Below are positions 11,599 to 63,311 of a stretch of 64,000 nt of DNA, piece by piece. A program made the position numbers and the translations under genes. The first letter of the stretch is position 1, and each line of letters starts with the position of its first letter. This DNA comes from a virus (taxonomy: Duplodnaviria; Heunggongvirae; Uroviricota; Caudoviricetes), in the IMG/VR virus record IMGVR_UViG_3300005437_000011. The stretch is one strand, 5' to 3'. Under the pieces are notes generated by a model that searched no databases, had not been told where the DNA came from, and saw nothing but the letters and a program-made list of their open reading frames with translations.

Positions 11599-11686
11599 AG
11601 CTCCTCACTCGCAAGGAAGCTACCGGATTTGTTCGCCTCTGGCGGCGTAGTTTTGCTGCTATCTTCACTGGCACGGAGACTTTGCC

Positions 11687-11956
11687 GTGAGGAAAGAGTC
11701 CGGTAAAATTCAGATGTCGAAGCTCGCGCTCATCGAGCAAGAGATCGCAGAACTCGATGCTCGTCGGGCGGAACTTTCCGCGAAGAAGGCAGGCATCTAC
11801 GCCGAACTAGCTGATGGGGCAAGCATCGATCACCGCACACTGCAACGGCCAAAGACGCCGCACCGGCCAAAGCTCGGCCCGGTATCAGAACTTGATCGGG
11901 CTAGAGCGCGCTCCATCTTGCGCGAAACTGACATCCGTCGGAGGGTTGGCCCGTGA
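11687..11956 (+). CDS. hypothetical protein (excisionase-position gene)
   Basis: 89 aa, immediately upstream of and overlapping int. No HTH recognised. Confidence 0.35.
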   Translation: MRKESGKIQMSKLALIEQEIAELDARRAELSAKKAGIYAELADGASIDHRTLQRPKTPHRPKLGPVSELDRARARSILRETDIRRRVGP

Positions 11957-20569: not shown

Positions 20570-21352
20570 ATGTCAAAGGCATCCAAAAAGCGCTATCAGG
20601 CGGCGCAACAGCCACTGAGGCGGTCTCAGGAGAGCACCGTTTGCGCGTTCCCAGCTGTAGCGGCGTACCTGTCATGGGTTACGAAGACGAGTGAAGAGGA
20701 CGCTCAGAAAACAGTGAACTTGATGGCCAAGTTCACTGATCCAGCGCGGGGAAAGGTTCAGTTCGACCGTTGCGAATCACCTGCGGAGCGCCTTTTCCTT
20801 CTTGGTGGGAATCTGAACAACGACCGCCAAGTGGGAATCCAGTTTGCAGATCCTGCCCGGTCCGAACTTGAAGCCAACGGTCGGACTGCCTGGCTTGTCG
20901 GTTCTCTTCTGGGCAGAGAAGACGAGAAGTTCGCTCTGTTCCAGCAGTTCGAGATCGAAGAATTTCGCGTCGACTTCTGCCTCCCGAAGGTTTTTCTAGC
21001 CATAGAAATTGATGGCCATGAATTTCACGAGAGGACCAAGGAGCAGGCGGCGGCAGACAAACAACGTGATCGCGTGTTGGTCCGGAACGGCTATCGGGTT
21101 CTGAGGTTCACGGGATCAGAGGTCTATAGTGATCCAGCCGAGGTCCTCGCTGAGGTTCTTGATATTGCGCTGGCTATTGAGGCGCTTCTCATCGAGGCTA
21201 GCTACCGCGATTTTTCTCGTGGCGTAGACCAGGGGTATGCTGACGGCTATGACTCGGCCGTAGAAGAATTAGGCGCCAAGGCTGCTGCTGACACCGATAG
21301 CTCGCAGCCGTTGCCTGCTCTGCCCGCTCACGCTTCGGAGGCTGCTGAGTGA
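20570..21352 (+). CDS. DUF559 / Vsr-like endonuclease-fold protein
   Basis: FRVDFCLPKVFLAIEIDGHEFHERTKEQAAADKQRDRVLVRNGYRVLRF fits the DUF559 pattern. Confidence 0.45.
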   Translation: MSKASKKRYQAAQQPLRRSQESTVCAFPAVAAYLSWVTKTSEEDAQKTVNLMAKFTDPARGKVQFDRCESPAERLFLLGGNLNNDRQVGIQFADPARSELEANGRTAWLVGSLLGREDEKFALFQQFEIEEFRVDFCLPKVFLAIEIDGHEFHERTKEQAAADKQRDRVLVRNGYRVLRFTGSEVYSDPAEVLAEVLDIALAIEALLIEASYRDFSRGVDQGYADGYDSAVEELGAKAAADTDSSQPLPALPAHASEAAE

Positions 21353-22389
21353 GAGCGTATGCCTATGTGGTTCCCACTTTCTGGACTCGTGGTAGCGGCA
21401 AGAAGCTGCGAGGCAACCCGGCCGCCCAAGCGCTCGCCCTGTACGTCATGACGGCTCCTAGCTCCAACATGGTCGGGCTGTACTACGTACCGCTGACGAC
21501 CATCGCTGCCGAGACTGGGATCCCGGCTGCTGAACTGCCTGGGGTCTTTTCGAAGATCTCAGAAATCGCCAAGTACGACTTCGAGAACGAAATCGTCTGG
21601 GTGCCCGAGGCCGCAGCGCACCAGATCGGCGAGACGATGAAGGGCACTGACAAGCGCCGCAGCCAGGTAATCCGGGACGTCGAGGCAATGGGGAGCCATC
21701 CGTTCGCCTTGGAATTCTTCGCAAAGTACTCGGCGGCTTACGGTCTCGATGCCCCGAAAACGGCGATCGAGACCAAGCCCCTTACTACGAAACCGGATGC
21801 CCCTTCGGAGGGCCTTCCTCCCGACCGGATGCCCCGATCCCCTGATCCTGTCCTGTCTTCTTCTGACGGATCAGATCGGGATCACGAACCAGATCACGAT
21901 CCATTTGCAGCCTCCCCCGGGGGCCTGACAGGTAGCGCGCGCGTGGGTGCCCCGGGATTGCCGGCGCCGGCCGAGAGGCACCTTGCGGCCATGGCGGAAA
22001 AAATGATCCGCAGCCGTGGCGCGTACATGGAGATTTTTGGCGATACTCCCAGTTGGCCAGAACTACAGCCCATCTTCATCGCCTTCCAGGAGACCTGGGG
22101 CCGCAATGGCGCGCCAGCGCACGGCGGAGACCCGAGGGCCCAGCTGATCCTCCAGCGCATCGTGGAAGGCATCCCCGTCGAGCGGTTGGCTATGGCCGTG
22201 CGCCGCTCGAAGTTCGCCGCCTATATCGTAGCTGACGAGAGCTACCAGACCCTGACGACGATCCTTCGTGACGCCGCCCAGGTCGACAAGTTCTGTGCGC
22301 TCACTGCCCTGCCCCGCAAGGCCGGCCAGTCGCGAGAGCCACAGACCGAGGGCGGCGACTGGAAGCCCACCGTGGAGAAACGCTCATGA
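21349..22389 (+). CDS. putative replication initiation / origin-binding protein (by position)
   Basis: 346 aa, immediately upstream of the DnaC-like and DnaB genes. No motif recognised. Confidence 0.35.
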   Translation: MRAYAYVVPTFWTRGSGKKLRGNPAAQALALYVMTAPSSNMVGLYYVPLTTIAAETGIPAAELPGVFSKISEIAKYDFENEIVWVPEAAAHQIGETMKGTDKRRSQVIRDVEAMGSHPFALEFFAKYSAAYGLDAPKTAIETKPLTTKPDAPSEGLPPDRMPRSPDPVLSSSDGSDRDHEPDHDPFAASPGGLTGSARVGAPGLPAPAERHLAAMAEKMIRSRGAYMEIFGDTPSWPELQPIFIAFQETWGRNGAPAHGGDPRAQLILQRIVEGIPVERLAMAVRRSKFAAYIVADESYQTLTTILRDAAQVDKFCALTALPRKAGQSREPQTEGGDWKPTVEKRS

Positions 22390-39229: not shown

Positions 39230-39591
39230 GCGTGCAGCTGTCAGCTCACGAGCTCTGCCTGCTGCTCGAGCGGTCGCTGCGCGGGCTCGGCGAGGAGTAT
39301 CGAGTGCAGGCGGCAATCGAGGCGCTGCTGAAGCGCGAGGGCATCCAGCATGTGCGGGAGTTCACGCTTTCACCGAAGGACCGCATCGACTTCCTTGTTG
39401 GAACCGTTGGCATTGAAGTAAAGGTCGCTGGTGGGATCGGCGCTGTCGTGCGGCAGCTTGAGCGATACGCTAAGCATGAGTGCATCCAGTCACTCGTGCT
39501 CGTGACCACCAAAAGTACATTGGCCAGAGTGCCGCTCGAGCTGAACGGAAAGCCGTTGCGGGCGGCCGTCATCCTTCCGGGGTTCTGTTGA
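39226..39591 (+). CDS. VRR-NUC / PD-(D/E)xK nuclease-like protein
   Basis: SPKDRIDFLVGTVGIEVKVAGG fits the PD...(D/E)xK core. Adjacent to an SNF2 helicase, which is a common phage pairing. Confidence 0.45.
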   Translation: MSVQLSAHELCLLLERSLRGLGEEYRVQAAIEALLKREGIQHVREFTLSPKDRIDFLVGTVGIEVKVAGGIGAVVRQLERYAKHECIQSLVLVTTKSTLARVPLELNGKPLRAAVILPGFC

Positions 39592-41294
39592 GCACCAAGT
39601 TTCTAGGCACCATCAAGTCGTTCAAAGGCAGCTGGATCGTCGAATGTGAGCCACACGTACTGATCCGTTTGCGCAGGGTGTTCCCGCGTATGTCCAGGCC
39701 GCGACCGCGCGCCGACGGAAAACGAGACGTGGTCTGCATTGCAAACACGCCTGAAGTCTGTCGGGATTTGGAATGGTTTGCAGGGCGATTCCCGCTGGAA
39801 CTCAGCAAGGACGATGAGTACCGACTGACGCAAAAAGCGAACGAGCATCGCGAAGGCGAACACATGGTTCAGCAATTGATCGCTAAGGAGATCAAGCCAG
39901 CTGAGTTCCGGATGGCGCTTCCGGCGCGCGATTATCAGAAAGTTGGCGCACAACTCTGTGTGTTGACAGGCGGAACAATTCTCGCGTTCGACATGGGACT
40001 AGGCAAGACGCCTACTGGTATCTACATGTTGATGGATCCTAAAACGCGGCCCGCTTTGGTGGTGACCATGACTCACTTGCCAAGGCAGTGGGAATCCGAG
40101 TTTAGGAAGTTCGCTCCACAGCTCCGAACGCACGTCATCGACTCGACTCGGCCGTACGACATTGCAAAGCGCTGCGGTGGCCAGATGCCGGACGCCATAA
40201 TCATCTCATATAGCAAACTCTCTGGATGGAAGGACGCGATTCGCGTTCGCTCTTTCATTATCGACGAAGCGCAGGAATTCCGGAACGGAACAGAGACGAA
40301 GAAAGGCGAAGCAGGAGCGGCAATTGCACGCGCTGCGTCGTATCGCTTGGCTTTAACCGGAACTCCTTTCGTAAATATGGGCGCCGAGATTTGGAACATT
40401 TACGAGATGGTTCGTCCAGGTGTCCTCGGCACATATCGTGAGTTCACTACCGAATGGTGCGTGGGTGATTCGGATAAACCAGGCAAAGTGAAAATCAAGG
40501 ATCCGGTCGCGTTCGGTTCGTATCTACGTCACGCCGGACTGATCGACCGCAAGACGAAGGCGGATGTCGGGCGTGAATTACCGAAATTGAACAAGGTCGT
40601 TCAGTTTGTCGATTATGACGTAGCTCACCTGCAGAGCGTCGAGCGCAAGGCAACGGCGCTAGCTGAGGTACTGCTGTCGAAAACCGAGCGCACGCGCGGC
40701 GCGAAGATGCAGGCGGCGGAAGAGTTGAGCAATCTCGTCAGGCAAGCGACGGGGGTCGCCAAGATGCCGTGGGTCGCGGACCTCGTGCGCATGCTGGTCG
40801 AAAGCGGGGAGCCGGTGCTCTGCTACCTGTGGCATCGGCAATGCTACGCTATCGTCAACGAGCGTCTCAAAGATCTGAATCCGGCGATGTACACTGGATC
40901 GGAGACTGAGAAGGAAAAGGCGGAATCGTTCCGACGGTTCACATCAGGCGAGACGGACGTGATGTTGATGAGTCTCCGCGCCGGACAGGGGCTCGATGGC
41001 TTGCAACACAGATGCTCGACAGTCGTCAATGGCGAGCTTGATTGGTCACCGGCAATCCACGATCAAGGGGTCGCGCGGGTATATCGCGATGGGCAAACGA
41101 AGCCAGTATTCGTTTATTTCCCGCTTGCTGACTCAGGCTCAGATCCGATCGTTTCGGATATTTTAGGAGTGAAGCGAGCGCAACTCGAAGGCGTCCGCGA
41201 TCTTTCGACCGGCACGGACATCCTACCGACAGCGGACACCGATCACATCAAGAAATTGGCTAAGGCGTACTTGTCCAAGAATGCTGTCAAGTGA
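39480..41294 (+). CDS. SNF2-family DNA helicase
   Basis: ILAFDMGLGKT (motif I), FIIDEAQEFRN (motif II), LALTGTPF (motif III), LMSLRAGQGLDGLQ (helicase C). The true start is probably TTG 39588, just after the VRR-NUC stop. Confidence 0.8.
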   Translation: MHPVTRARDHQKYIGQSAARAERKAVAGGRHPSGVLLSTKFLGTIKSFKGSWIVECEPHVLIRLRRVFPRMSRPRPRADGKRDVVCIANTPEVCRDLEWFAGRFPLELSKDDEYRLTQKANEHREGEHMVQQLIAKEIKPAEFRMALPARDYQKVGAQLCVLTGGTILAFDMGLGKTPTGIYMLMDPKTRPALVVTMTHLPRQWESEFRKFAPQLRTHVIDSTRPYDIAKRCGGQMPDAIIISYSKLSGWKDAIRVRSFIIDEAQEFRNGTETKKGEAGAAIARAASYRLALTGTPFVNMGAEIWNIYEMVRPGVLGTYREFTTEWCVGDSDKPGKVKIKDPVAFGSYLRHAGLIDRKTKADVGRELPKLNKVVQFVDYDVAHLQSVERKATALAEVLLSKTERTRGAKMQAAEELSNLVRQATGVAKMPWVADLVRMLVESGEPVLCYLWHRQCYAIVNERLKDLNPAMYTGSETEKEKAESFRRFTSGETDVMLMSLRAGQGLDGLQHRCSTVVNGELDWSPAIHDQGVARVYRDGQTKPVFVYFPLADSGSDPIVSDILGVKRAQLEGVRDLSTGTDILPTADTDHIKKLAKAYLSKNAVK

Positions 41295-41298
41295 CCGC

Positions 41299-42402
41299 TC
41301 AAAATTCGTGGTCGCGAATTACGATTGGTGCGTCATCGCGGCCCTTCCAATATGGTTCGATCCACTTGCGCGTGCGATCAGCATGCCCTGGTCCGCAAGC
41401 TTGATTGCGCCAATGCCCGCGCACAACCCATCGCACTTTGAATGCGCGGTTCACCTCGCCCGTTAGGAAGGCGTGCATCGCCGGGATCGCGTTCACCTTC
41501 ACTGGCGAGCCGAGCACATAGTCATTGTTCGCGCGCAGCCCGAACTTGCCCTTCGGTGCGCCCTTGCTACCCTCCCCTTTGACCTTGGTGATCCCGTGGT
41601 TCTCCATGGCCAGGATGACGTTGATCGCTAGGAGCTTCCCGAGTTCTACGGCGCGCGTCTCCAACACGTCCGGGGCCACGGTGCCACCATTAGGGCCCCA
41701 AGGATGAGAGACGGTAGCGCACAATTCATCGGCGGTCAGCGGCCCGCTCCAGAGCTGAACCGCGCCGACGTCTAGGCGTACTTGCCAGTAGGGCGCCGTG
41801 CGCGAGCGTCTGCCGGGCATTGGCACCTCGTCCCCGCGATAACTCATCACGGCGACGCACTGGCACCAGCTCTTACCGGTCGCGTCGATCGCACCTTCGA
41901 TAGGCTCGTCCGAGAGCACAACGGGGAATGATTCCGTTTCCAAGGTGATCGAAAATGCAGGCCACGGCGCGCGAAGGGCTTCGGCTTGTTCTGCGGTCAC
42001 GTCAGTCAGGCAAAACGCTGCGGCCTGTTGCGCGGTAATAAACAGGTTCGGCAGCCCCATCTCGAACCAGCGAGCAGACCAGATCAGCTGGTCGCCGAAC
42101 TTGCTGTCGATGCCGGGACCGAAGACGAACCCGCAAACGGCCGTGGCGATCATGTCGCTCTCGATCGACCGAGTGATGGTCGACAGGACGCGGCCGCACG
42201 CGGCAAGGCTGTAAGCGCTGATGCCGCTCGCGGCCATAACGCGAACGGGCGCCGCAAGATCGCGCGAAACTTTCGCCAGCGCCTTTGCGCCGATTCTCTC
42301 AAGCGCCAAGCGAATGGTACCGGACTCTTCCGGGTAGCGTTCGAAGAACTGGTCCATCGCCGCGGGGAATTCTTCAGCCTTCAGCACTTGAAAGTAGTTC
42401 AT
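41299..42402 (-). CDS. hypothetical protein 'Y1' (paralog of 55185..56279)
   Basis: C-terminus VRWVVRGHWRNQACGPGHADRTRKWIEPYWKGRDDAPIVIRDH aligns with VQYVVRGHWKNQVHGSGRAERKFIHIEPYWRGPEDAPIAVRSH. PWPAFSITLE/PWPAMMIRVPE also shared. Confidence 0.55.
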   Translation of the reverse strand: MNYFQVLKAEEFPAAMDQFFERYPEESGTIRLALERIGAKALAKVSRDLAAPVRVMAASGISAYSLAACGRVLSTITRSIESDMIATAVCGFVFGPGIDSKFGDQLIWSARWFEMGLPNLFITAQQAAAFCLTDVTAEQAEALRAPWPAFSITLETESFPVVLSDEPIEGAIDATGKSWCQCVAVMSYRGDEVPMPGRRSRTAPYWQVRLDVGAVQLWSGPLTADELCATVSHPWGPNGGTVAPDVLETRAVELGKLLAINVILAMENHGITKVKGEGSKGAPKGKFGLRANNDYVLGSPVKVNAIPAMHAFLTGEVNRAFKVRWVVRGHWRNQACGPGHADRTRKWIEPYWKGRDDAPIVIRDHEF

Positions 42403-43340
42403 ATTTCTTCGTGTTTCTTCGGTCGCAGACGGGTACCACCGGCCGCGCGATTCAATTTTTCCAACAAGTCCAATCGCCTGAACTCAAGGTGCAAGTTCCT
42501 GTTTTTGAACGCTCGAAAGCGAAAGAACTGCGTCTCACCAAACTCACCGCGTGGCGTGACCTTGATCGCGTCCGACAGCTCACTGTAGTGGCGCTTCGAT
42601 GTGTTTCCGAGCCCGGCAAGCGCGCTAAAAACGTTCTCCAGCGCTGTCAGTCGCTGCTCTGCCCAGTGACTGACGCGCATGCCAGGGCCGTGGAACGGAA
42701 GCTCGACAACGCCGCTGAGCACGACCTTGGCTGGGACTTCGAATTCAGAGTTCGTTTTGTATTCGCTGTTGTGCGGGCGGAGCCATTCGAATACCTCGTC
42801 GATCGCGGCTTCAATCATGCTAGGCAGCTGGTCTTGGAACTGCTTCACCATGGCGGCCACGTTGGCCTCGGTGATAGGTAGGACCTCACCTTTCTTGAGC
42901 TGTTCCTCAAGTTGCTCCCAGGCTTTGATCGACATGGCGCGACGTAGCTCCAGCCGTTCGACGAGCGTTTTCCAGATCGAACGTCGCAGCTCGGTGATCT
43001 CGTCCACCGGCTTCTCGAAGTTGATTTGGCGTCGCCACTCCCCAAAACAGATGCCTCTGTAGCTGTCGAGAGTGAAGGCGTCGTTCAGCGCATTCACGGC
43101 GCGCGCAATCATCTGGCAGCCCGTTGCGATCTCGCTTTCGCTTCGTTCATAGATGCTCACCAATTCGGAAACGGAGAGCCGTCCAGCGAGCTGATTCCCG
43201 GCCTCACTACGCGCGAACTCGCGGCAAGCTTCACACAGGCCGCCCTCGTCAGCCCCGATGGCCTTATAGCACTCGGAGCATTCAGGACGCTCGGAGTCAT
43301 CCTCTGCGTCAGATGTCGACGCGGGCAATAGCGCGGTCAC
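42399..43340 (-). CDS. hypothetical protein 'X1' (paralog of 49516..50388)
   Basis: LRRSIWKTLVERLELRRAMSIKAW...HNSEYKTNSEFEVP...NLHLEFRRLDLLEKLNRAAGGTRLRPK aligns with the corresponding blocks of X2. N-terminal CxxC...CxxC. Confidence 0.55.
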   Translation of the reverse strand: MTALLPASTSDAEDDSERPECSECYKAIGADEGGLCEACREFARSEAGNQLAGRLSVSELVSIYERSESEIATGCQMIARAVNALNDAFTLDSYRGICFGEWRRQINFEKPVDEITELRRSIWKTLVERLELRRAMSIKAWEQLEEQLKKGEVLPITEANVAAMVKQFQDQLPSMIEAAIDEVFEWLRPHNSEYKTNSEFEVPAKVVLSGVVELPFHGPGMRVSHWAEQRLTALENVFSALAGLGNTSKRHYSELSDAIKVTPRGEFGETQFFRFRAFKNRNLHLEFRRLDLLEKLNRAAGGTRLRPKKHEEI

Positions 43341-43700: not shown

Positions 43701-44117
43701 TCATCGCTTGCTCACCATGGCGCCCAGTACGCCCTGAAACGTTATGCTCGGGTTCACCAAGCGCAGCACCTCATGGATCATGCGCTCACCTCCACCGTTG
43801 GCCAGTAGGCGAGCGTCGACTGGACCTGACGGCACGTCGACGTTATATCCTCGCGGGCAGCTCAGCCCCTCGACATGTCCGAACGCCCGGCAGATGAGCG
43901 GGCGCACCTCGTAGACGGAGCACTTCCCATCCAGATACAGCGGGCAGGTTATCCCCTGGTCCTTGGGCGTGATCTTGTGCTCGATCACATAGGCCACGAC
44001 GCGGTCAAACTCCGCCTGAGTGGCGGGAGCTGGCCCGCAACACTCGCCGCAACCGTCGTCACAGCGCATTGGCGGGAACTCGGGGGCCACGACGGGCAGG
44101 CGGCGCTTGCGCTTCAT
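43701..44117 (-). CDS. YkgJ-family cysteine-cluster protein
   Basis: CDDGCGECCG...CPLYLDGKCSVYEVRPLICRAF fits the CxxCxxCC ... CPFL ... C.IY..RP..CR.F pattern. Confidence 0.5.
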   Translation of the reverse strand: MKRKRRLPVVAPEFPPMRCDDGCGECCGPAPATQAEFDRVVAYVIEHKITPKDQGITCPLYLDGKCSVYEVRPLICRAFGHVEGLSCPRGYNVDVPSGPVDARLLANGGGERMIHEVLRLVNPSITFQGVLGAMVSKR

Positions 44118-44416
44118 TTGCTAGCCGCCTTCTTTTGCCTAGCCAGATTCCTGGCGCGTTCGACAGACGTCATAGCGAGCCAGTCCAGTGCTCCGCCTTT
44201 TCGCTCGAAGTCACTCATCTTCGCCCAAGTGCAACGGGCGCCGTGGAGATTGGTGTCAATCCGATCCATTCCATCGACGTAGTTCATTTTGGTGAGACCG
44301 ACGCCAACCACTGATCCATCCGGAAGTACATAGGTGCGCGGCGGAGTGGTTCTAGAGAGCTTCAGGGCGCGTTTCTCGGCAGTGGGACCCGTGAAGCCAA
44401 GGATTGGTTGTCTCAT
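44114..44416 (-). CDS. hypothetical protein
   Basis: The C-terminal part of ORF 44114..44596 is protein-like. Real start is probably Met at ~44416. Confidence 0.3.
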   Translation of the reverse strand: MRQPILGFTGPTAEKRALKLSRTTPPRTYVLPDGSVVGVGLTKMNYVDGMDRIDTNLHGARCTWAKMSDFERKGGALDWLAMTSVERARNLARQKKAASK

Positions 44417-44913
44417 CTGCGGCCTCGCGGCAATGTGTCCTGCAACGTCTCGTGTTGCTCGCCGTCTAGCTCGAAGTCCGCACTGATTCTGCCGCGCGCC
44501 ACAGCGAACCGGAGGCCCAGATTGTTCCCTGGCCCCAGCTGATTCGCAAGCCAGCCGACACACGGCTGCTCGCTGCCCACGGGCGACTCGTGGCATGCCA
44601 TCAAGCGAAGCGTCCCGCCAAGGTTGAGCGCGCCGGGCTCCGTGATCGTGTTGCTGAGCGCCGCGTGCTTATCCGCGCAGTAGCCGTTCGGGATCTGGTT
44701 CGGATCGGTGCTGACTTTCCAGGGGCACGCTTTGCACTGCTTGCGTGTCTTCGTCGCCTGCTTCGCTTGCTCGATGCCATCCGCGGCATCAAGGAGCTCA
44801 GCTCCAGGCCCATCACTATAATAGGCGCCCATCGACGCCGCTTCTGATGCGCGTTGAGTGCGGTGGTTTCGATTCAAGGGTCGAGTTTTCATTTGGATAG
44901 CTCCGTCGGGCAT
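44413..44913 (-). CDS. Cys-rich conserved hypothetical protein
   Basis: CKACPWKVS...NGYCADKHA...LRLMACHESP...QPCVGWLANQL. Confidence 0.45.
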   Translation of the reverse strand: MPDGAIQMKTRPLNRNHRTQRASEAASMGAYYSDGPGAELLDAADGIEQAKQATKTRKQCKACPWKVSTDPNQIPNGYCADKHAALSNTITEPGALNLGGTLRLMACHESPVGSEQPCVGWLANQLGPGNNLGLRFAVARGRISADFELDGEQHETLQDTLPRGRR

Positions 44914-47258: not shown

Positions 47259-47864
47259 TTAAGCGTTACCGAGGAACAGCCCGGCCGTGGCGCACAGCTC
47301 GGCGAGCGTGGTGTCGCGAGCGATCCGGGCCTGCTCCACCCGGCGCGCGGACTCAGCGCGCTCCACGATCAGCTGCGCCAGGCGCTCGTCACAGGCAGCG
47401 ACGACGGCTTCCGCTTCGGCCACGACGGCGCGAGAGGCGACCATGTTACGTTCGATAGTCGCGGCACGGTCCGCCTTGATCGCTTCCGAGCTAAACGTGG
47501 CATGTCCGTAGAAACGAACGCAGAAGTAGTCGCTCTGGATGTCAGAGCGGTCGTAGTTGTACGCCTGGAGGACGCCTTCCAATGTTTCGAGCAAGGCCTT
47601 CGCCTCCGCGGTGTAACGGTCGCCTTCGAAATAGGCGTGCGGGTTGGACGCCACGTAGGCGTCGGTCTGGATCTGAACCGGGCACGCCGTAACGGCGACG
47701 TTGATCGAACGGCCACCCGAGTAGCGCTCGATGCGGACGGAACAAACCAAGCCGGCGATCTTCAGCGCCTTGATGTCAGCGCGGACCAGCTTCGCCACAG
47801 CGGCGACGTCCAGGTCGCGGGTCTCGGTGTACTTGCTGCCGTTGGTGTTGTTCGCGGTGTTCAT
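47259..47864 (-). CDS. hypothetical protein
   Basis: 201 aa. The GCTGATATCAGC palindrome lies 16 bp upstream of its start. Confidence 0.5.
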   Translation of the reverse strand: MNTANNTNGSKYTETRDLDVAAVAKLVRADIKALKIAGLVCSVRIERYSGGRSINVAVTACPVQIQTDAYVASNPHAYFEGDRYTAEAKALLETLEGVLQAYNYDRSDIQSDYFCVRFYGHATFSSEAIKADRAATIERNMVASRAVVAEAEAVVAACDERLAQLIVERAESARRVEQARIARDTTLAELCATAGLFLGNA

Positions 47865-49198: not shown

Positions 49199-49519
49199 AT
49201 GAACGCCGAAACGCTGCACACCCCGATGCTACTTGGCCGGATTGAGGGCGAGGAGATCCGTTCGCGCTATCTGACCAGCGAAACGCTCTGCGAGGTGTAC
49301 GGGCGCCTAGCTGACGGCTGTGCTTATAGCGTGATGGTCCGGCATGCTGGATCCGGTTTCGTGGTCCGTGTCAGCGACCAACGAAAAGTCCAGCAGCCGA
49401 CGCGCACGGGCCCGGACTACTACTGGAACAAGGCGAAGGTTTCTCGTCACTCGAGTGAGGCGGCCGCTGTGAAGGCAGCCGGCGGCCATCTCACGGCATT
49501 TCGGGAGCTAAGCCAATGA
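49199..49519 (+). CDS. hypothetical protein
   Basis: Start MNAETLHT at 49199, after the palindrome at 49171-49182. The N-terminal part of the ORF-track call (from 49163) is a translation of the palindrome. Confidence 0.4.
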   Translation: MNAETLHTPMLLGRIEGEEIRSRYLTSETLCEVYGRLADGCAYSVMVRHAGSGFVVRVSDQRKVQQPTRTGPDYYWNKAKVSRHSSEAAAVKAAGGHLTAFRELSQ

Positions 49520-50388
49520 TGGGCGCGCTCGGATTTCTAGCGCCGTCGGACTCAGGCGATCCGGAGGACGACGACGCAGCCACAAGGCGTCTCACCGTCC
49601 GCCTTAGCCCCGCCCAGCTCGTGGCTGTTTACCGTCAGGCAGAGCGCGACATCAAGCAAGGTTTCGCGCTGATTGACGGCGCGGAGGACGCGCTCAATGC
49701 GGCTTTCACGCTCGACGGGGTGAGCGGGGTTAGCGTCCAAGGCCACAGCAACACATACCTCGACTTCAGCAAACCTGAAACCCGCTTGAAAGAGGTTCGC
49801 CGTTCGCTCTGGCACACGATGGTGGAGCGGCTCGAGATCCGCCGGCTCATGTCGATCAAGGCTTGGAAAGAGCTGAACGAGCAGATCGACAAGGGTGAAG
49901 CCCCCGAGCTGACCGAAGAGGCAATCGCGGCGATGGTGAGGCAGTTTTCGGAGGCCGCCCCCGCCATGCTCGAGCAGGCGGTGTGCGAGGTTTTCGACTT
50001 CCTACGCCCGCCGAATAGCGAATACAAGCGCAACTCCGAGTACGAAGTCCCGCGCCGAGTCGCGCTGACTTGGGTGATCGATACCTGGTACATCAAGGCG
50101 TTTGCGAGCCAGGGCATGCGCCCGCGGCACGAATGCGAACAGCAGCTCTCCGCGCTCGAAAACGTCTTTTCATCACTCGACGGTCAGGGCTCCGTGTCCA
50201 AGGGGCACGTGAGCAATCTGTCGGAAGCTATTCGCAAGACGAAACGTGGAGAGCTCGGGAAGACTGAGTATTTCGCTTTTCGCGGGTTCAACAACGGGGC
50301 CTTGCATCTGGAATTCTTGCGGATCGACCTGTTGGGTAGATTCAATCGCATTGCCGGAGGCGCGCGCTTGCGGCCGAAGACAGGATGA
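49516..50388 (+). CDS. hypothetical protein 'X2' (paralog of 42399..43340)
   Basis: See X1. The conserved blocks are shared, but X2 lacks the N-terminal Cys cluster. Confidence 0.55.
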   Translation: MMGALGFLAPSDSGDPEDDDAATRRLTVRLSPAQLVAVYRQAERDIKQGFALIDGAEDALNAAFTLDGVSGVSVQGHSNTYLDFSKPETRLKEVRRSLWHTMVERLEIRRLMSIKAWKELNEQIDKGEAPELTEEAIAAMVRQFSEAAPAMLEQAVCEVFDFLRPPNSEYKRNSEYEVPRRVALTWVIDTWYIKAFASQGMRPRHECEQQLSALENVFSSLDGQGSVSKGHVSNLSEAIRKTKRGELGKTEYFAFRGFNNGALHLEFLRIDLLGRFNRIAGGARLRPKTG

Positions 50389-50554: not shown

Positions 50555-52348
50555 ATGATCACAATTGACGACGCCCGCACGCGGGACATGGACGACGCCA
50601 TCGAGGTCGAAGAGACCACGGATGGCTGGATCGTTCGTGTCGCCATCGCCGACGCAAGCCGTCTCGTCACGCCGGGCAGCGAGCTGGACGTGGCGGCCCG
50701 CGCCCGGGGCAACACGCTGTACTTCGGGACCGGTAACAGTCCAATGCTGCCGCGTGAGATCGGCGAGTGGCAGCTATCGCTCTGGCCCGGTAAGACCAAG
50801 CACGCCATCACGGTCGAGATGCGCCTTTCCCAGAATTTGGGGCTGGATGAAACAACGCTCAGCCTCGGTAAGATCGTGAGCGCACACAAGGTCGCCTATG
50901 CTCAGGTTCCGTCGCTGCTCGCGGGCGCTCCCGCAGTAGAGGATCTCGGCCCGTTGCTCAATTCGGCGCGCAAGCTCGCGCTCGGTCTCCTCAAGAAACG
51001 CCGTGAGTCAGGCGCGCTCGTCTTCTATGATCTGAACAACGGTTGGGTGACGACTGAGGAAGGCTCGGTCAAGAAGCTCAAGGACCACACGGAGACGATC
51101 GGGTACATCATCGTTCAAGAGCTGATGGTTCTCGCGAACACCGCGGTGGCGCTGTACGCCATCGATCACAAGCTGCCGATGCTGTTCCGCAACCACGAGA
51201 CCAGGGGCGGCTCGGCGCCCGATCGCGAGGAGATCCAGGCGCTCATCGCTTCGGGCGCGGAGAACCCGGTCATTGACCTGGAATCGTTTCAGCACCGCAC
51301 CCACAAGCTGTTCAAAAAGGCTGAGTACGGATCGATGCTCACTGGGCACGCCGGCCTTAGCGTCCCGGCCTACCTGCACTTCACCTCACCCATTCGCCGC
51401 TACGCCGACCTGGTGGTCCATCAGCAGTTGCGATCTCACCTCAAAGGCGAGCCGCTTCCACACAGCGAGGAGGGCCTAGCGGCGGTTGCTGCCCATCTGA
51501 ATGAACTCGCGAAGAAGGATGTGGAAAGCAACCGAGCGCACTTCAAGGGCCGCGACGAGTCGCAGGCTAAGAAGCAGGTCGAAGCGCGCAAACTTGACGG
51601 CTTGAACGCCAAACAGTTCGAACGTGTGGTGAAGGTCGAGGTCCGCTCTGGGGAAAGCCCGTCAGAAGCACTGGTGGAGGCGTGGGAACGCCGGCTTGTC
51701 GATGGCAGCGTGCCGACCATCTGCATGACGACCGTGCTCATGCTGGGGATCGAGGTGGACGGAACCGGCCTGAAACGTGTACCGGTTGCTGACGGCTGGG
51801 ACGTGATCAAGACGCTGACGATCGGGTATCTCGCCGAGCACACGCCGGAAGCGATCTCGATCCTCGCCCAGGCTGGCGCACTCGGCTGGCCAGACGTCAG
51901 GATCGATATCGTCTCGACGGGTCCAGCACACGCGCCGCGGTGCACCGGTTCCGTCGCCATCAAGCTAGATGGCGGGTTGGTTAGGGGTATATCAGTCGGG
52001 AAAACGGTTAGAGTTGCAGAACAGCGCGCAGCAGTATGCTTGCTGGCAGAACTCGCGATGGTCGCTACCCCGCAGTTCGAAGCACTCGAGCCTCTACCGC
52101 CAGCACCGGTCATCGAAGCGAAGCCGCGCCTCGACCTCAACAAGCACCCCGTTTCCCAGCTCATGGAGCGAAGCCAAGCAGAGCGTCAACCGCCACCGAA
52201 GTTTGATTTCACCGTAAAGGGTGAGGCGCACCTCCCCGTCGTGACGTGCACAGCGAGCTTTCTGGGAACGACGGTTTCGGCGGTCGCAGCGTCGAAACAA
52301 GAGGCGAAGACGGCTGCGGCCAAGCTGCTACTGGAGAAGGTCGAATGA
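50555..52348 (+). CDS. RNase II/R-family (RNB domain) exoribonuclease with C-terminal dsRBD
   Basis: IDDARTRDMDDAI is RNB motif I. GHAGLSVPAYLHFTSPIRRYADLVVHQQL is motif IV. C-terminus VVTCTASFLGTTVSAVAASKQEAKTAAAKLLLEK is dsRBM-like. No cold-shock or S1 domain is evident. Confidence 0.7.
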   Translation: MITIDDARTRDMDDAIEVEETTDGWIVRVAIADASRLVTPGSELDVAARARGNTLYFGTGNSPMLPREIGEWQLSLWPGKTKHAITVEMRLSQNLGLDETTLSLGKIVSAHKVAYAQVPSLLAGAPAVEDLGPLLNSARKLALGLLKKRRESGALVFYDLNNGWVTTEEGSVKKLKDHTETIGYIIVQELMVLANTAVALYAIDHKLPMLFRNHETRGGSAPDREEIQALIASGAENPVIDLESFQHRTHKLFKKAEYGSMLTGHAGLSVPAYLHFTSPIRRYADLVVHQQLRSHLKGEPLPHSEEGLAAVAAHLNELAKKDVESNRAHFKGRDESQAKKQVEARKLDGLNAKQFERVVKVEVRSGESPSEALVEAWERRLVDGSVPTICMTTVLMLGIEVDGTGLKRVPVADGWDVIKTLTIGYLAEHTPEAISILAQAGALGWPDVRIDIVSTGPAHAPRCTGSVAIKLDGGLVRGISVGKTVRVAEQRAAVCLLAELAMVATPQFEALEPLPPAPVIEAKPRLDLNKHPVSQLMERSQAERQPPPKFDFTVKGEAHLPVVTCTASFLGTTVSAVAASKQEAKTAAAKLLLEKVE

Positions 52349-52778: not shown

Positions 52779-52984
52779 CACCTCGAGACATTATCGCGCC
52801 AGCGGTCGCATTCACGATCTGCATAGCGCTTGGTTGGCTGGTCGAGGCGAGGCGAAGCGCAAGGCTGCAGCAGGGGCGACGACTGTCGGGCGTCAACCCA
52901 ATCAGAAGGAAGCTGAACAAATCCAAGCGATCCAATATCTCCAAGAATTAGAAGAACGGAGGGAAACGCGGCGCTTGCTGAGAA

Positions 52985-53388
52985 TGTTTGAGGAAAAGCA
53001 AGAGGTGCGCGACCGGACCGCGGACATTCTCCGCGCTGCCAGAGCAAGACTAGTGCAGGGCTGGCATCAGGGCCAATACATGGCGCGCGCGGCTGACGGC
53101 AGCGAAGCTCGGCCCGAGTCACCGTCGGCAGTTAGCTGGTGCCTACTGGGCGCAGTATATGCCGCGTCCAACAACGATGCCGTCATCGCGGCTAGGCTAG
53201 CGCTCACCAACGCCGAGGCCGCGAACAAAGAAGAACGGGCGATAGTTGTTCGGATCTTGAATAGATTTACGAAGCCGCGAGCTAACGTGCCCAGCTTCTG
53301 CTGGAGTGAATGGCCAGAGGTTTCTAAGTCAGATGTGCTCGGTCTGTTCGATGAAGCGATTGCGTTAGCTGAGGGGGCTGCCAAATGA
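52985..53388 (+). CDS. conserved phage protein (GWCQG...WC..GA family); paralog of 9129..9461
   Basis: See 9129..9461. The start is probably the Met at ~52985 inside ORF 52834..53388. Confidence 0.45.
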
Positions 53389-53943: not shown

Positions 53944-55188
53944 GTGAAGCTTCGCCCCTACCAAGCTCTCGCCGTCTCTGGCGTCAGGATGCATTGGGCG
54001 GCTGGGCGCCTTCGTGTCTGCGTTGTGGCGCCTACCGGCTCGGGTAAGACCGAGCTTGCCGTTGCGCTGCTCGGCACCGGGCGCGCGCTCTGGGTCGCTC
54101 ACACTCGTGACCTTGTGCTTCAAACTGCGAGGCGGCTGCGCGCACTACTGGGTCAGTCTGCAGTGGGCGTCATTCTCGCTGGCCATTACCCGGACAGCTC
54201 GGCACGAATCCAAGTCGGCACCGTACAGACGCTAGTCGCTCGCGGATTGCGGCCGGGCGCCGACGTGATCGTGCTCGACGAGGCGCATCACTATATGGCC
54301 GAGCACTGGCGGCAGCTTGCCGACGCTTATCCAGGTATCCCGTGCGTCGGTCTCACTGCGACGCCGCAGCGCGGTGATGGGGAGCCGCTCGGGGACATCT
54401 TTGACGAACTTGTGTCGACGGCTTCTTACTCGCAGCTGATCGCTGGAGGTTTCCTGGTGCCGGCGCGCGTGCTGCAGCCGCCGATGCAGCTTGGCAACGA
54501 TCTGGCGCAGGAGCCGGTAACAGCGTGGGAGAAGTACTCCGAAGGCTCGCGGACCTTTCTGTTCTGCCCGCGTGTCGAGATTGCCGAGTTCTACGCAAAG
54601 GCGTTTCGCGACCGAGGCATTCTCTTCGGCGTCATCGAGGCGAACACGCCGCGCGTTGAGCGAGAGGAGCTACTGGCGCGATTCCGCACAGGCGCGCTCC
54701 GTGGGCTGGCGAACGTCAACACGTTGACTGAAGGCATCGACGTCCCGGAGGCGCGTTGTGTCATGCTCGCGCGCGGCTTCGGACACGTCGGGGCTTACTT
54801 GCAGGCGGTCGGCCGTGTGCTTCGTCCAGCCAAGGACAAGGCAGACGCCATTGTTATTGACCTGTGCGGGGCGACGCTGCGCCACGGTTTACCGACACAG
54901 GATCGCGTCTATTCGCTGCAAGGTCGACCGATCAGCGGCGAGGCGCCGGAGCGCGAACAAGGGGAGCGTGACGCCTTCTCTCAGAATGTCCGCGGGCTCG
55001 ATCTGAAAATTGCGGCAGGCGCAGCGCCGATCCCTTTCGGGCTTCCGCCACCAGTCGACGACTCAGAACGCCGCGCGGAGTTCGAGCGTCTGCGCGCGTT
55101 GGCGCGGCAGCACCGGATGCGCGACGGATTCGCTGCGGCGAAATTCAAAGAGAAGTTCGGCGAGTGGCCGAAGGAGGAATGGACATGA
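53944..55188 (+). CDS. superfamily-2 DEAD/DEAH-box helicase (type III restriction res-like)
   Basis: LRPYQ (Q motif), APTGSGKT (I), VLDEAHH (II), LTATPQR (III) and QAVGRVLR (VI). Confidence 0.75.
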   Translation: MKLRPYQALAVSGVRMHWAAGRLRVCVVAPTGSGKTELAVALLGTGRALWVAHTRDLVLQTARRLRALLGQSAVGVILAGHYPDSSARIQVGTVQTLVARGLRPGADVIVLDEAHHYMAEHWRQLADAYPGIPCVGLTATPQRGDGEPLGDIFDELVSTASYSQLIAGGFLVPARVLQPPMQLGNDLAQEPVTAWEKYSEGSRTFLFCPRVEIAEFYAKAFRDRGILFGVIEANTPRVEREELLARFRTGALRGLANVNTLTEGIDVPEARCVMLARGFGHVGAYLQAVGRVLRPAKDKADAIVIDLCGATLRHGLPTQDRVYSLQGRPISGEAPEREQGERDAFSQNVRGLDLKIAAGAAPIPFGLPPPVDDSERRAEFERLRALARQHRMRDGFAAAKFKEKFGEWPKEEWT

Positions 55189-56279
55189 TTCGCAGAGAGT
55201 TTGCGTTTGCTAAACTTATCGGACCGCATTTCCGAGGAGTAGATCTGCGAGACGGACGAGCGATGGGTCTCGCACTTCAGAAGGCGTGCGAAGCGTTGCC
55301 CGAGCCTAACCGATCAATGCTGCATAGCAAGCTGGAGAATTATTTCAGGGACCCTAGCGATCTTGACGAACAAGAGGGCGTGAAGGGGATTACGTGGAGC
55401 GGGATTTGGGGGGCTTTCGGGATGCCGGTGGTCAACATACCAGAAGCGAAGATGGCGGCGTCGCTCTGCATGACGCGAATACCTAGTGAATACATCGACT
55501 CTGTCGTGCCGCCTTGGCCAGCGATGATGATTCGCGTTCCGGAAGATCTAGGGCTTGTGATCGATGGCGTGAGCGGCTTGAAAAATGGAGAGCAGGTCCC
55601 GTGCCGACTGATCAGTGTACGAAGGAGTTGGACGGTAAACTCAAGAGGCGAACCGTGGGAATCTTGGTATGTCCGCCTCAATGGCGTCTTGCTTGATGAC
55701 GGCACCGCCATGCTCAAGCGAGCTGCCGCCGATGCGCTGGCGCTTGGATTTACCGAAACGATGGTGATGGAGAACTATGGCAGGGACCTGGATCGAAGCC
55801 TCAATCATTCGATCACGGTTCCCATAGAACAGCTTTGCGAACCAAGCGAATGGGGCGGACCGACGGGACGATCGATGGAAATGGCCTGCCGTCTTGTCGC
55901 TGGTGCTTGCATGGCGTTTAGCTCAGGGATGGCGCGGCCGCAAAAGAGCACCGGCGGCGCGCTTAACAAGCGACAGGAGAAATTTCCAACCAGTAATCAA
56001 TACCTGCTGCGCGCGCCCATAAAGTTCAACGTGACGGCTGGCGTGAGGAATTACATCGCCAATGGCAAGAAGGGACGAGGCGGTCTGCAGTCGGTGCAGT
56101 ACGTTGTCCGCGGGCATTGGAAAAACCAAGTTCATGGGTCCGGCAGGGCCGAGCGCAAGTTCATTCACATCGAGCCCTATTGGCGCGGACCCGAAGACGC
56201 CCCGATCGCGGTGCGTTCACACATTCTGAAAGGAGCGATCAATGCACCTAGTGAAGAGTCACGAGAAACTGCTGAGTAA
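55185..56279 (+). CDS. hypothetical protein 'Y2' (paralog of 41299..42402)
   Basis: See Y1. The ATG overlaps the helicase stop. Confidence 0.55.
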   Translation: MIRREFAFAKLIGPHFRGVDLRDGRAMGLALQKACEALPEPNRSMLHSKLENYFRDPSDLDEQEGVKGITWSGIWGAFGMPVVNIPEAKMAASLCMTRIPSEYIDSVVPPWPAMMIRVPEDLGLVIDGVSGLKNGEQVPCRLISVRRSWTVNSRGEPWESWYVRLNGVLLDDGTAMLKRAAADALALGFTETMVMENYGRDLDRSLNHSITVPIEQLCEPSEWGGPTGRSMEMACRLVAGACMAFSSGMARPQKSTGGALNKRQEKFPTSNQYLLRAPIKFNVTAGVRNYIANGKKGRGGLQSVQYVVRGHWKNQVHGSGRAERKFIHIEPYWRGPEDAPIAVRSHILKGAINAPSEESRETAE

Positions 56280-61434: not shown

Positions 61435-61959
61435 GTGCGCAAGCGCCACCCCCTCCACGCGACGCCAGCGGTTAATTGGGCGAATTGGGGCAGAGTGACA
61501 GAAGCAGAGCCCGCAAAGGCCAAGAGGCGTTCGGCACCAGCAAACGACGGTACCGTCAAGGCCCGTAAGAAGCTCAACAAGGTCGAGCGCATTGCCTACA
61601 TCGTGGGCATCATGGCCGAGAACCAGTGGGTCACCGGCATCACCGGCCCGCAGCTCGCGGCCAAGTGGAAGATCTCGATCGAGACGGTAGCGAAGGACGC
61701 CCAGGAGGCATCCCGTACCTTCAACGCCGACCCGACTGAACGCGCCGAGCTTCGAGCCCGTTGGTTCTCCAAGATTGAGTCGGCGCAGAAGAAGGCTCTC
61801 CGCAAGGGTCAGTTCATCGCCCTGGCCCAACTGCTCAAACTCGAAGGCGACCACCTCGGGGCATTCGATGTCACCGACAAGGGTGCGGCTACCAAGCACC
61901 GGGTCGAGGTGGTGTTCACCGACACCCAAGACCCTTCGGTTGGGTCGGCGCCGTCGTGA
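61435..61959 (+). CDS. candidate terminase small subunit (by position)
   Basis: 174 aa, directly upstream of and overlapping terL. Confidence 0.35.
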   Translation: MRKRHPLHATPAVNWANWGRVTEAEPAKAKRRSAPANDGTVKARKKLNKVERIAYIVGIMAENQWVTGITGPQLAAKWKISIETVAKDAQEASRTFNADPTERAELRARWFSKIESAQKKALRKGQFIALAQLLKLEGDHLGAFDVTDKGAATKHRVEVVFTDTQDPSVGSAPS

Positions 61960-63311
61960 GCGCCCGAATCGTTTTCAACCGACCGCAGTCGAAGGCGGCT
62001 CGGTTCGTCAAGCCAGGCCACACCGTCACGCTGGCCTTTGGTCGCGGGGTCGGCAAAAGCTACTTCATCCGGCGTCTCTGCTACCTGCTGCTCTCTCAAT
62101 GGGAGCACGTTGAACGGGTCACCAAAGACGGAACGATCCGCGGGATCCGGATCGTCTTCCTGCTGCCGACGTTCAAGCAGTTCAAGGACGTTCACGCCCG
62201 CGCGCTGATCAACGAGCTAGAAGGGGACTTCGCTTTCCTGGGCGCGGAGATCGACCGCACGACCTACACGGTCACCTTTCCAGGCGGGAGCTCGATTCAG
62301 GTCTTCCCAGCTACCGAACACGCCGGACAGCGAGCTCGCGGTATCCGTGCCGACGTTGCGGTGTTGGACGAGTGCGACGACATCGACATTAACCTGTACG
62401 ACGCCGTTGTCCGGCCATGGTTCACTGAACCTTGGTCACTCAAGATACGTCTGGCCAGCGGCACACCGAAGCGTGGTCGCCATGGGCTGCTCTACAAGCT
62501 TTTCCAGGCTGGGCAGCGCGGCGCGCGTGTCCGCAGCGGCGCTGAGCTTGATGTCAAAGGGCTTGAGATCGACGAGATCGCGGCTCTATCCGATTTCTAC
62601 TCGGTACATGCTACATGCCTCGACGCTCCCGAGAACGTCGACCAGCGTGAGGTCACAGCAGCTCGGTTGTCGATGCCGCTCGCGACCTTCGAGCGCGAAT
62701 ACCTTTGCAACTTCGACGCGGGCGAAGGCCTCGTCTATCCGTTCGAAGAATCGTTCCACGTCAAAGAGCCACCGCCGCTCTCCTCCTTCCGCGAGTTCCA
62801 TGTCGGGATGGATCACGGCTTCGTTGACCCAGGTGTCCTGCTTCTAGCAGGCATCCAAGGGCACGGAGAAGACGCCACGATCTGGTTCTTGGATGAGTCG
62901 TACGAGACTGCGGTGCCGAACCACATCTGGAACGAACGCGCCGCCGCGTGGCGCTACGCTCGCTTCTGGCCCGATCCATCGCGCCCTGATCGCATCAGCG
63001 ATCTCAAGGCTATGGGGCTCGACGTTGGCCAAGTCGACAACGACATCCTAGCCGGGATAGCACGCGTCGCCGAGCTCCTGTTCATCCGAACGGCTGAGAC
63101 CGGTGAGCGGTTCGCTCGCATGTACATCTCGCCTAAATGCGTGAATATGATTCGTGAGCTCGGCACATACCGCCGCAAGAAGCACACGGACGGCACGTTT
63201 GACGAGATGCCGGAGGACAAGTCGAACCATGCGATGGACAGCGCACGCTATCTCTGCGTGGGTCGCTTCGGGAGGGCTGAAAATTCACGAAACGTCGTCT
63301 CAGGCCGCTGA
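61956..63311 (+). CDS. terL: terminase large subunit
   Basis: Walker A FGRGVGKS. Walker B VAVLDECDD. C-terminal nuclease residues in MDHGFVDPG and DKSNHAMDSARY. Confidence 0.85.
   Translation: MSARIVFNRPQSKAARFVKPGHTVTLAFGRGVGKSYFIRRLCYLLLSQWEHVERVTKDGTIRGIRIVFLLPTFKQFKDVHARALINELEGDFAFLGAEIDRTTYTVTFPGGSSIQVFPATEHAGQRARGIRADVAVLDECDDIDINLYDAVVRPWFTEPWSLKIRLASGTPKRGRHGLLYKLFQAGQRGARVRSGAELDVKGLEIDEIAALSDFYSVHATCLDAPENVDQREVTAARLSMPLATFEREYLCNFDAGEGLVYPFEESFHVKEPPPLSSFREFHVGMDHGFVDPGVLLLAGIQGHGEDATIWFLDESYETAVPNHIWNERAAAWRYARFWPDPSRPDRISDLKAMGLDVGQVDNDILAGIARVAELLFIRTAETGERFARMYISPKCVNMIRELGTYRRKKHTDGTFDEMPEDKSNHAMDSARYLCVGRFGRAENSRNVVSGR

Follow-up and report, generated by a model that had tools for sequence, protein, structure and literature searches.

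The closest described relatives of the genes considered here are the anti-CRISPR AcrVA2 and the fertility inhibitor FinQ on one side, and proteins of the family DUF4942 on the other. AcrVA2, from a Moraxella bovoculi prophage (PDB 7CI1/7CI2) and the founding member of its superfamily, recognises nascent Cas12a by the LSKT peptide at the N-terminus and reduces the amount of cas12a mRNA, with H286, R288 and H291 as residues essential to its function (bioRxiv 10.1101/2022.11.29.518452). Most AcrVA2 homologs are found in hosts without Cas12a, and one of them, FinQ, shares a similar C-terminal domain, has a divergent N-terminus and lowers F-plasmid tra mRNA (bioRxiv 10.1101/2022.11.29.518452). FinQ, the F fertility inhibitor of the IncI1 plasmid R820a, thus provides a precedent for non-CRISPR targets. 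DUF4942 (PF13708) is carried by 1,398 plasmids, 1,287 of them conjugative. In pOXA-48 it takes the form of a stand-alone protein (WP_015059998), whose gene has antirestriction, ssb, Hha and JAB genes as neighbours in the leading region, and in gp78 of Tunturiibacter phage Tunturi_4 it is the C-terminal domain of an N6-adenine methyltransferase, fused downstream of methyltransferase motifs I and IV. Literature searches on PF13708/DUF4942, and on the AcrVA2-like superfamily PF26125, returned nothing functional.

Both families occur in the window, a 64,000-nucleotide stretch of a Caudoviricetes virus (IMG/VR record IMGVR_UViG_3300005437_000011). An initial annotation had described four genes, X1 and Y1 on the leftward arm and X2 and Y2 on the rightward one, as a conserved and duplicated two-gene module; all four open reading frames are found where it placed them. 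They and the neighbouring helicase genes are arranged as follows:

39480..41294 (+): SNF2-family helicase, convergent on Y1 (Pfam SNF2-rel_dom and Helicase_C; stop codons 4 bp apart)
41299..42402 (-): Y1, AcrVA2-like superfamily protein; 367 aa open reading frame, final gene of the leftward operon
41302..41433 (-): conserved C-terminal block of Y1, RWVVRGHWRNQACGPGHADRTRKWIEPYWKG..., with RGHW at 41410-41421 (from alignments and PHROG 15934)
41962..42069 (-): mid-domain block of Y1, W112...L-T-D...P146-W147, spaced as in AcrVA2; W112, P146 and W147 near-invariant
42399..43340 (-): X1, zinc ribbon plus DUF4942 protein; 313 aa open reading frame, Pfam PF13708 E=2.6e-35, 122 bits
42438..42995 (-): DUF4942 domain of X1, residues 116-301 (Pfam envelope)
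43224..43280 (-): N-terminal CxxC-x11-CxxC zinc ribbon of X1, residues 21-39, translation CSECYKAIGADEGGLCEAC
49516..50388 (+): X2, stand-alone DUF4942 protein without zinc ribbon; 290 aa, domain at 49789-50358, PF13708 E=4.2e-34
53944..55188 (+): ResIII/DEAD helicase directly upstream of Y2 (Pfam ResIII and Helicase_C)
55185..56279 (+): Y2, second, divergent AcrVA2-like protein; open reading frame with BLASTP match to Y1 at E=1e-21 and match to PHROG 15934; a GTG at 55164 is an alternative start

X1 and Y1 are the two final genes of the leftward early operon, next to the SNF2 gene, in a slot that related phages use for other cargo. The stop of X1 and the start of Y1 share 4 bp (ATGA), as annotated, and the Y2 ATG shares 4 bp with the stop of the ResIII helicase. 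Such overlaps are generic in this genome (20 of the 62 same-strand neighbour junctions within the window, or 32%), so the one between X1 and Y1 is no specific sign of functional coupling. X2 and Y2 are not adjacent: the 4.8 kb between them hold an RNB-dsRBD nuclease, a DUF6197 gene and the ResIII helicase. Among 50,697 phage records, megablast found no match to the 18-kb region, and predicted promoters and terminators between 40.8 and 50.6 kb are as numerous as expected from shuffled sequence.

Neither family had been assigned to a characterised domain in the initial annotation, yet both can be assigned. X1 and X2, as judged from their Pfam scores, belong to DUF4942, a catalogued but uncharacterised family: with the cutoff at 25 bits, they score 122.2 and 118.3, and the alignments cover positions 2-185 of the 190 in the profile. 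Like the pOXA-48 protein they are stand-alone, and all lie in early or accessory regions of mobile elements. Unlike gp78, X is not fused to a methyltransferase; neither tblastn nor a motif scan reveals a partner methyltransferase within the window, and none of the gp78 type was seen near X or Y homologs generally. The zinc ribbon, correctly annotated in X1 and absent from X2, is an addition to DUF4942 that is confined to a small X1-type subclade (P0049-P0054, P0072 and P0081) and missing from most homologs. An AF2 model of X1 has a pLDDT of 88. No solved structural relative of X1 or DUF4942 was found, and searches of PDB sequences with X1 and with the A2 profile gave noise only.

Y1 and Y2 are not AcrVA2 orthologs but most likely distant relatives of AcrVA2, members of the AcrVA2-like superfamily (PF26125). 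The precomputed PF26125 label is carried by 41 of 47 Y1 homologs and by all genuine AcrVA2 proteins; it is faint on Y1, reaches E<=1e-5 on homolog P0006 and is weak on P0012. Y gave no match in NCBIfam, PADLOC or a local Pfam release older than PF26125, while Y1 and Y2 both match PHROG 15934. Profile alignment with hhalign of the Y family (A3, 142 sequences) to the AcrVA2 clade (A4, 55 sequences) gives E=3.4e-4 and a probability of 38%, over 180 collinear columns that end RGHW to RGHW. The clade alignment improved on the Shewanella ORF43 sequence alone, for which the probability was 4.8%, too weak to use. Searches of PDB sequences with Y1 and with the A1 and A3 profiles yielded noise only, the HMM searches did not reach 7ci1, and Foldseek gave no match for Y. 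The predicted Y fold matches the AcrVA2 crystal structure 7CI1 and no replication protein; in the Y1 model the final 40 C-terminal residues are of low confidence. Altogether the sequence support for kinship between Y and AcrVA2, which are about 7% identical, is moderate.

The conserved residues bear on how far the likeness goes. V327, R328, G329, H330, R332, Q334, G337, P350, W352 and G354 of Y1 are invariant or nearly so in alignments of 36 and 142 sequences. The Y1 RGHW aligns with R289-G290-H291-W292 of AcrVA2, so that the essential H291 corresponds to Y1 H330 and to the H of the Y2 RGHW (at 56109-56120, followed by K where R is usual); this histidine is near-invariant in the 142 Y sequences and invariant in the 55 AcrVA2 sequences. 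Further downstream, G298 corresponds to Y1 G337 and P311 to P350. In the mid-domain, the spacings of W112...L-T-D...P146-W147 (20 and 35 residues) equal those of W79...L-P-D...P-D-W in AcrVA2; motif spacing suggests that W79 and W112 are equivalent, but the hhalign register differs by one residue. The other two essential residues differ: H286 falls on Y1 W325 (family consensus F) and R288 on the invariant V327, and the H-x-R that Y1 does contain, H330-W-R332, is shifted downstream by four residues from the AcrVA2 register. At the position of D89, which like W79 is conserved in AcrVA2, Y1 has I122, and the position is not conserved in Y. With aromatic, Val and Ile residues in place of H286, R288 and D89, Y chemistry may differ from that of AcrVA2; Y also has invariant features of its own, R332, Q334 and a WIEPxWKG block.

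The paralogy claimed for the two arms is far above chance: X1 and X2 are 52% identical over 267 aa (E=5e-94) and Y1 and Y2 28% identical over 290 aa (E=1e-21), and the similar sequence blocks quoted in its favour are present. The idea of a duplicated module fares less well. The nearest relative of X2 is P0050, a protein of another element (74%), with X1 at only 52%; Y2 ranks 76th among the matches of Y1, and Y1 ranks 97th among those of Y2. On these rankings neither X1/X2 nor Y1/Y2 is a sister pair, and X2 and Y2 stand apart. Multiple paralogs per element are normal in the AcrVA2-like family.

Are X1 and Y1 then partners at all? They resemble two-gene toxin-antitoxin or defence/anti-defence operons in that both are small, lie side by side on a mobile element and overlap by 4 bp, and they could form a lineage-specific two-component system in which X is a sensor, adaptor or regulator, Y the effector, and the two are co-translated. 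The overlap would suit this, as would the presence of each family twice in the same genome and the recurrence of the X-then-Y order in one independent but closely related phage, L028 (X 53% and Y 61% identical). Adjacency, however, is not conserved across homologs. Among some 130 non-self loci, about 35 bearing X and about 95 bearing Y, L028 is the only one with both genes, and there the overlap is replaced by a gap of 205 nt. It accounts for the single Y relative among the X loci; the Y loci (1.58 Mb) had no X relative within about 10 kb, although the X model was broadened, its positive controls scored 4e-27 and 2e-23, and matches up to E<=1 were considered. In L026 and L132 the Y1 ortholog follows a DUF3560-methyltransferase, likewise with a 4-bp overlap, and in L027 the X ortholog precedes a GIY-YIG/AP2 homing endonuclease. 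These neighbours are not cryptic forms of X or Y, a candidate explanation that was dropped when neither the L026 protein nor the L027 protein matched the X or Y HMMs. Together with the 4.8 kb between X2 and Y2, the non-sister paralogs and the frequency of 4-bp overlaps, this makes a two-component system improbable. X1 and Y1 are probably two independent accessory genes, and the conserved module of the initial annotation, which would itself have been given up had homologs never been co-located, comes down to one locus. Toxin-antitoxin and defence-system readings were also rejected: none of the 5,027 defence-system models of PADLOC-DB matched X1, Y1, X2 or Y2 at E<=0.1, no toxin or antitoxin domain is present and the pairing is not conserved. 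It would be very improbable, too, that X and Y assist the neighbouring helicases as accessory factors, serving replication, recombination or DNA remodelling and not conflict. Y1 does abut the SNF2 helicase in the window, in L026, in L027-type phages and in L132 (the convergent arrangement recurs in L026, L027 and L132), Y2 overlaps the ResIII helicase, and an SNF2 homolog lies nearby at 8 of the 94 Y loci and at 4 of the 33 X loci. But over 90% of the Y loci and almost 90% of those with X have no such homolog close by, the convergent SNF2 gene is on a separate transcript, Y shares its fold with AcrVA2 and with no replication protein, and plasmid DUF4942 genes sit among antirestriction genes.

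The account that we consider probable, with some reserve, is one of independent accessory genes, with Y1 and Y2 as AcrVA2/FinQ-type silencers, and with X1 and X2 as establishment or anti-restriction factors. By analogy with AcrVA2, Y1 and Y2 are most likely target-specific silencers. They are anciently diverged proteins in which a helical N-terminal region of variable sequence precedes an alpha/beta domain and a short C-terminal domain with the conserved RGHW. Each would bind one specific protein of host defence or of a rival element, possibly as a nascent chain; binding would lead to loss of the target mRNA or of its expression, and two paralogs would mean two targets. The closest relatives at the genome level belong to Polyangiaceae and Sorangium, and the host is likely a myxobacterium; as nothing there points to Cas12a, the target of Y presumably differs from that of AcrVA2. 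More tentatively, X1 and X2 might serve establishment or counteract restriction, working on or near DNA. The early guess of an accessory and possibly anti-defence role therefore holds, given an AcrVA2-like Y and the place of DUF4942 beside antirestriction genes in plasmid leading regions, whereas nothing supports its toxin/immunity variant. It is less likely, though worth some weight, that Y1 and Y2 are directed like FinQ at competing mobile elements and not at host immunity, in superinfection exclusion or fertility inhibition. The tra mRNA precedent, the prevalence of AcrVA2 homologs in hosts lacking Cas12a and the abundance of the Y branch on actinobacterial plasmids and prophages all agree with this; FinQ is likened to Y by description and not by sequence, it resides on an enterobacterial plasmid and Y on a phage, and the early-operon position fits anti-defence equally well. 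The identity of the target is the sole difference between this and the silencer account preferred here. A bolder proposal is that the variable slot at the operon end is an anti-defence island. DUF4942 would there serve as a new anti-restriction module directed at DNA, functionally interchangeable or partnered with an N6-adenine methyltransferase and cooperating with an AcrVA2-like silencer; lacking H286 and R288, Y would use other effector chemistry on a target other than Cas12a. Other phages have DUF4942 fused to a methyltransferase, and in this lineage the two alternate upstream of Y, which suggests possible interchange or partnership, but the full proposal is doubtful. X1-Y1 is probably a fairly ordinary pair of anti-defence genes and no new kind of system.

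Two formerly unassigned genes thereby gain a concrete, testable identity. For DUF4942, found on about 1,400 plasmids that include pOXA-48-type resistance plasmids, the alternation and fusion with methyltransferases offer a small functional clue. Y1 and Y2 are new members of a very large AcrVA2/FinQ branch without prior experimental study, and a branch that lacks two AcrVA2 essential residues, in hosts probably without Cas12a, could reveal how general the AcrVA2 mechanism is and which other targets it has. The Y profile matches 9,049 clusters at 50% identity.

The X1-Y1 gene pair is real, and known families largely account for it: rather than the new two-gene system proposed in the initial annotation, X and Y are new members of the DUF4942 family and the AcrVA2-like superfamily, and they occupy a variable accessory slot. 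The positions of all four ORFs are confirmed, as is the paralogy of X1 with X2 (BLASTP, 52% identity over 267 residues, E=5e-94) and of Y1 with Y2 (28% over 290 residues, E=1e-21). The window (GC about 61%) is a phage or prophage-like element that corresponds to JGI soil metagenome contig Ga0207692_10000026, and no close relative was found among 50,697 phage records. Its genes form two divergent arms with their junction near 48.75 kb; X1 and then Y1 close the leftward arm, and the rightward arm runs from X2 through a ribonuclease, a DUF6197 gene and a helicase to Y2. Among genomes, those with the nearest relatives of Y1 belong to Polyangium, Polyangiaceae and Sorangium, so the host may be a myxobacterium.

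Genes of the window
11953-13449, integrase
21349-22389, DnaD-like gene
39480-41294 (+), SNF2-family helicase, convergent on Y1
41299-42402 (-), Y1, 367-aa ORF
42399-43340 (-), X1, 313-aa ORF
43701-44117 (-), CxxCxxCC (PF03692) small accessory gene
44413-44913 (-), DUF6283 small accessory gene
47259-47864 (-), weak match to LPD29 (polyvalent-protein-associated domain)
49516-50388 (+), X2, 290-aa ORF
50555-52348 (+), RNB+dsRBD ribonuclease, directly after X2 and a 57-aa ORF
52834-53388 (+), DUF6197 small accessory gene
53944-55188 (+), ResIII/DEAD helicase, its stop overlapped by the Y2 ATG
55185-56279 (+), Y2 ORF, with an in-frame GTG at 55164
61956-63311, large terminase

The initial annotation had assigned neither family to a characterised domain. 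For X the answer is direct, as both proteins match Pfam DUF4942 (PF13708) end to end, X1 with 122 bits and X2 with 118, far over the cutoff of 25. PHROGs matches are solely to families of unknown function, and NCBIfam and PADLOC return none. By tblastn DUF4942 is common on mobile elements: 1,398 plasmid records carry it, and 1,287 of these plasmids are conjugative. The pOXA-48 copy, a stand-alone gene of 286 aa, lies in the leading region amid antirestriction, ssb, Hha and JAB genes. Phage copies lie mostly within genes annotated as DNA methyltransferases. Tunturiibacter phage Tunturi_4 gp78 (locus L134, 3071-4903) carries DUF4942 at residues 311-520, C-terminal to methyltransferase motifs I (FLEPSAGKG, residue 35) and IV (NPPF, residue 128); a methyltransferase of this type is absent from the window. 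A zinc ribbon, CxxC-x11-CxxC, is confirmed at X1 residues 21-39 and its absence from X2 likewise; it marks a small X1-type subclade. The closest relative of X2 (P0050, on a 1,123-bp JGI contig) joins an X1-like ribbon, CSECYKTIGADDGGLCEAC, to a body with 74% identity to X2 versus 52% to X1, a combination that may have arisen by recombination between the X1 and X2 types.

Y is more distant from its named relatives. Local Pfam, NCBIfam and PADLOC searches give no match, and a precomputed AcrVA2-like label (PF26125) sits on 41 of 47 Y1 relatives, faint on Y1 and solid on P0006, a homologous protein. The AcrVA2 sequence was reconstructed through Shewanella phage Y11 ORF43, a bridge that matches 7ci1_A at E=1.5e-72; the functional residues W79, D89, H286, R288 and H291 all fall in their exact places once a PDB chain offset of +1 is applied. 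The AcrVA2-clade profile holds 55 sequences, every one with the PF26125 label and several bearing the name "AcrVA2 family anti-CRISPR protein". Aligned to it by hhalign, a 142-sequence Y profile scores E=3.4e-4 (probability 38%) over 180 collinear columns, pairing AcrVA2 84-292 with Y1 118-331 so that RGHW meets RGHW at the end. Y1 R328-G329-H330-W331, G337 and P350 correspond to AcrVA2 R289-G290-H291-W292, G298 and P311, positions with little or no variation in either clade, and two spacings are identical (W...L[PT]D, 20 residues; W...PxW, 35 residues). In contrast, the essential H286 and R288 of AcrVA2, along with D89, become W325, V327 and I122 in Y1, and the Y branch has invariants of its own, R332, Q334 and a WIEPxWKG block. 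On this evidence Y belongs, as a distant member, to the AcrVA2-like fold superfamily and is not an AcrVA2 ortholog; this branch, lacking two of the essential residues, is modestly new. Clustered at 50%, it numbers 9,049 representatives at E<=1e-3 and 1,783 at E<=1e-30, carried by prophages, viral contigs and actinobacterial plasmids and always annotated as hypothetical. Y2 reads RGHWK at 56109-56123 (+) instead of the RGHWR found in at least 90% of family members, a conservative change at the near-invariant position R332 (Y1 numbering).

Are X and Y a conserved pair? Profile HMMs for X (A2) and Y (A1 and A3) were run on all ORFs of fetched loci with up to 10 kb of flank per side; some loci are near-duplicates, so independent samples are somewhat fewer than the counts. 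No X relative occurs in the Y-seeded loci (20 genome loci, 70 viral contigs, L003-L005, L026 and L132), and among the X-seeded loci (31 viral contigs, L027, L028, L130 and L131) a Y relative occurs in L028 alone, a locus reached solely through a phmmer search with the Y1 protein. It carries an X ortholog (53% identity), then a 205-nt gap, then a Y1 ortholog (61%) of which the contig end leaves just the first 99 residues. At E<=1 with filters off, an X model broadened with plasmid and methyltransferase-fused DUF4942 still finds no X in 1.58 Mb of Y flanks. Sensitivity is adequate, since the original model detects these distant domains at E=4e-27 and 2e-23. Among these loci X is independent of Y, and the proposed pairing recurs in L028 alone. 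The Y-type C-terminal motif is also present on 38 plasmids (e.g. NZ_CP084587.1, NC_014811.1), always in a hypothetical protein; these are mostly from Mycobacterium, Mycolicibacterium and other Actinomycetota, a range that scarcely overlaps that of DUF4942 plasmids because the latter are mostly enterobacterial.

Nor was a module duplicated as a unit. X2 and Y2 lie 4.8 kb apart, Y2 ranks 76th among the relatives of Y1 and Y1 97th among those of Y2, the true orthologs of Y1 share 64-66% identity, and X2 is nearer to P0050, on another element, than to X1.

Close orthologs (at least 50% identity) reveal that the slot convergent on SNF2 is filled by differing cargo among sister phages.

Content of the slot, by locus
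Window: X, then Y
L028: X, gap, Y
L026, L132: DUF3560+N6-adenine-methyltransferase protein (VLEPSAGTG...VVMNPPF), then Y
L027: X, GIY-YIG/AP2 homing endonuclease (10915-11928), SNF2; no Y
L130, L131: X, then unrelated small genes

X precedes two of four Y1 orthologs, and Y follows two of six X1 orthologs. The 4-bp overlap, an ATGA common to the X1 stop and Y1 start, is genuine. Of the 62 same-strand junctions in the window, 20 have such an overlap, so they reflect tight packing and not the specific translational coupling once read into this one. The methyltransferase gene and Y of L026 overlap by 4 bp too, as do X and the L027 endonuclease, which sits in the Y position. The DUF3560-methyltransferase gene replaces DUF4942 upstream of Y1 orthologs at L026 2150-4069 and L132 2-403. 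This alternation, with fusion of the two in other phages, is also modestly new; their fusion in one protein suggests that DUF4942 and N6-adenine methyltransferase are functionally linked. L027 also has a DUF6283 gene near its X ortholog.

The Y1 and SNF2 stops lie 4 bp apart (41294-41299), and the equivalent convergent stops overlap in L026 (5169-5172) and L027 (11921-11928), so the opposing units have no intergenic space for terminators; a consensus terminator scan of 40.8-50.6 kb gives counts equal to the shuffled expectation. The longest SNF2 ORF (604 aa) begins with GTG at 39480, the metagenome gene call (568 aa) starts 108 nt downstream, and the true start within 39480-39590 is uncertain.

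AcrVA2 acts by binding Cas12a at its nascent N-terminal peptide, which leads to loss of cas12a mRNA, and needs H286, R288 and H291; its homologs are widespread in settings without Cas12a, and one of them, FinQ, lowers F-plasmid tra mRNA (bioRxiv 10.1101/2022.11.29.518452). By analogy, Y1 and Y2 may have different targets, each a protein of host defence or of a rival element. Recognition would fall to their N-terminal and middle parts, which diverge (the alignment of the two begins only at Y1 residue 106), and the conserved C-terminal domain would shut off expression of the target. X1 and X2 would work apart from Y; the methyltransferase fusions, leading-region location and zinc ribbon suggest a part in establishment or anti-restriction, probably at or close to DNA.

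The RNB-dsRBD nuclease beside X2 is intriguing because AcrVA2-triggered mRNA loss has no known nuclease. In this fusion an RNB domain (RNase II/R catalytic) is followed by two dsRNA-binding motifs at the C-terminus, and Pfam gives no match to the usual cold-shock or S1 domains; about 130 X or Y loci contain no homolog, and no link to AcrVA2-type mRNA loss was found. Multiple divergent AcrVA2-like paralogs on one element are common, with two each on L060 and on L123/L124/L128. For four distinct AcrVA2-clade proteins (P0291, P0297, P0307, P0331) the listed longest contig is 43,860 bp in each case, and such identical figures suggest putative arrays of up to four paralogs on single elements. The pairs P0283/P0287, P0317/P0332 and P0294/P0330 likewise share a listed longest-contig value.
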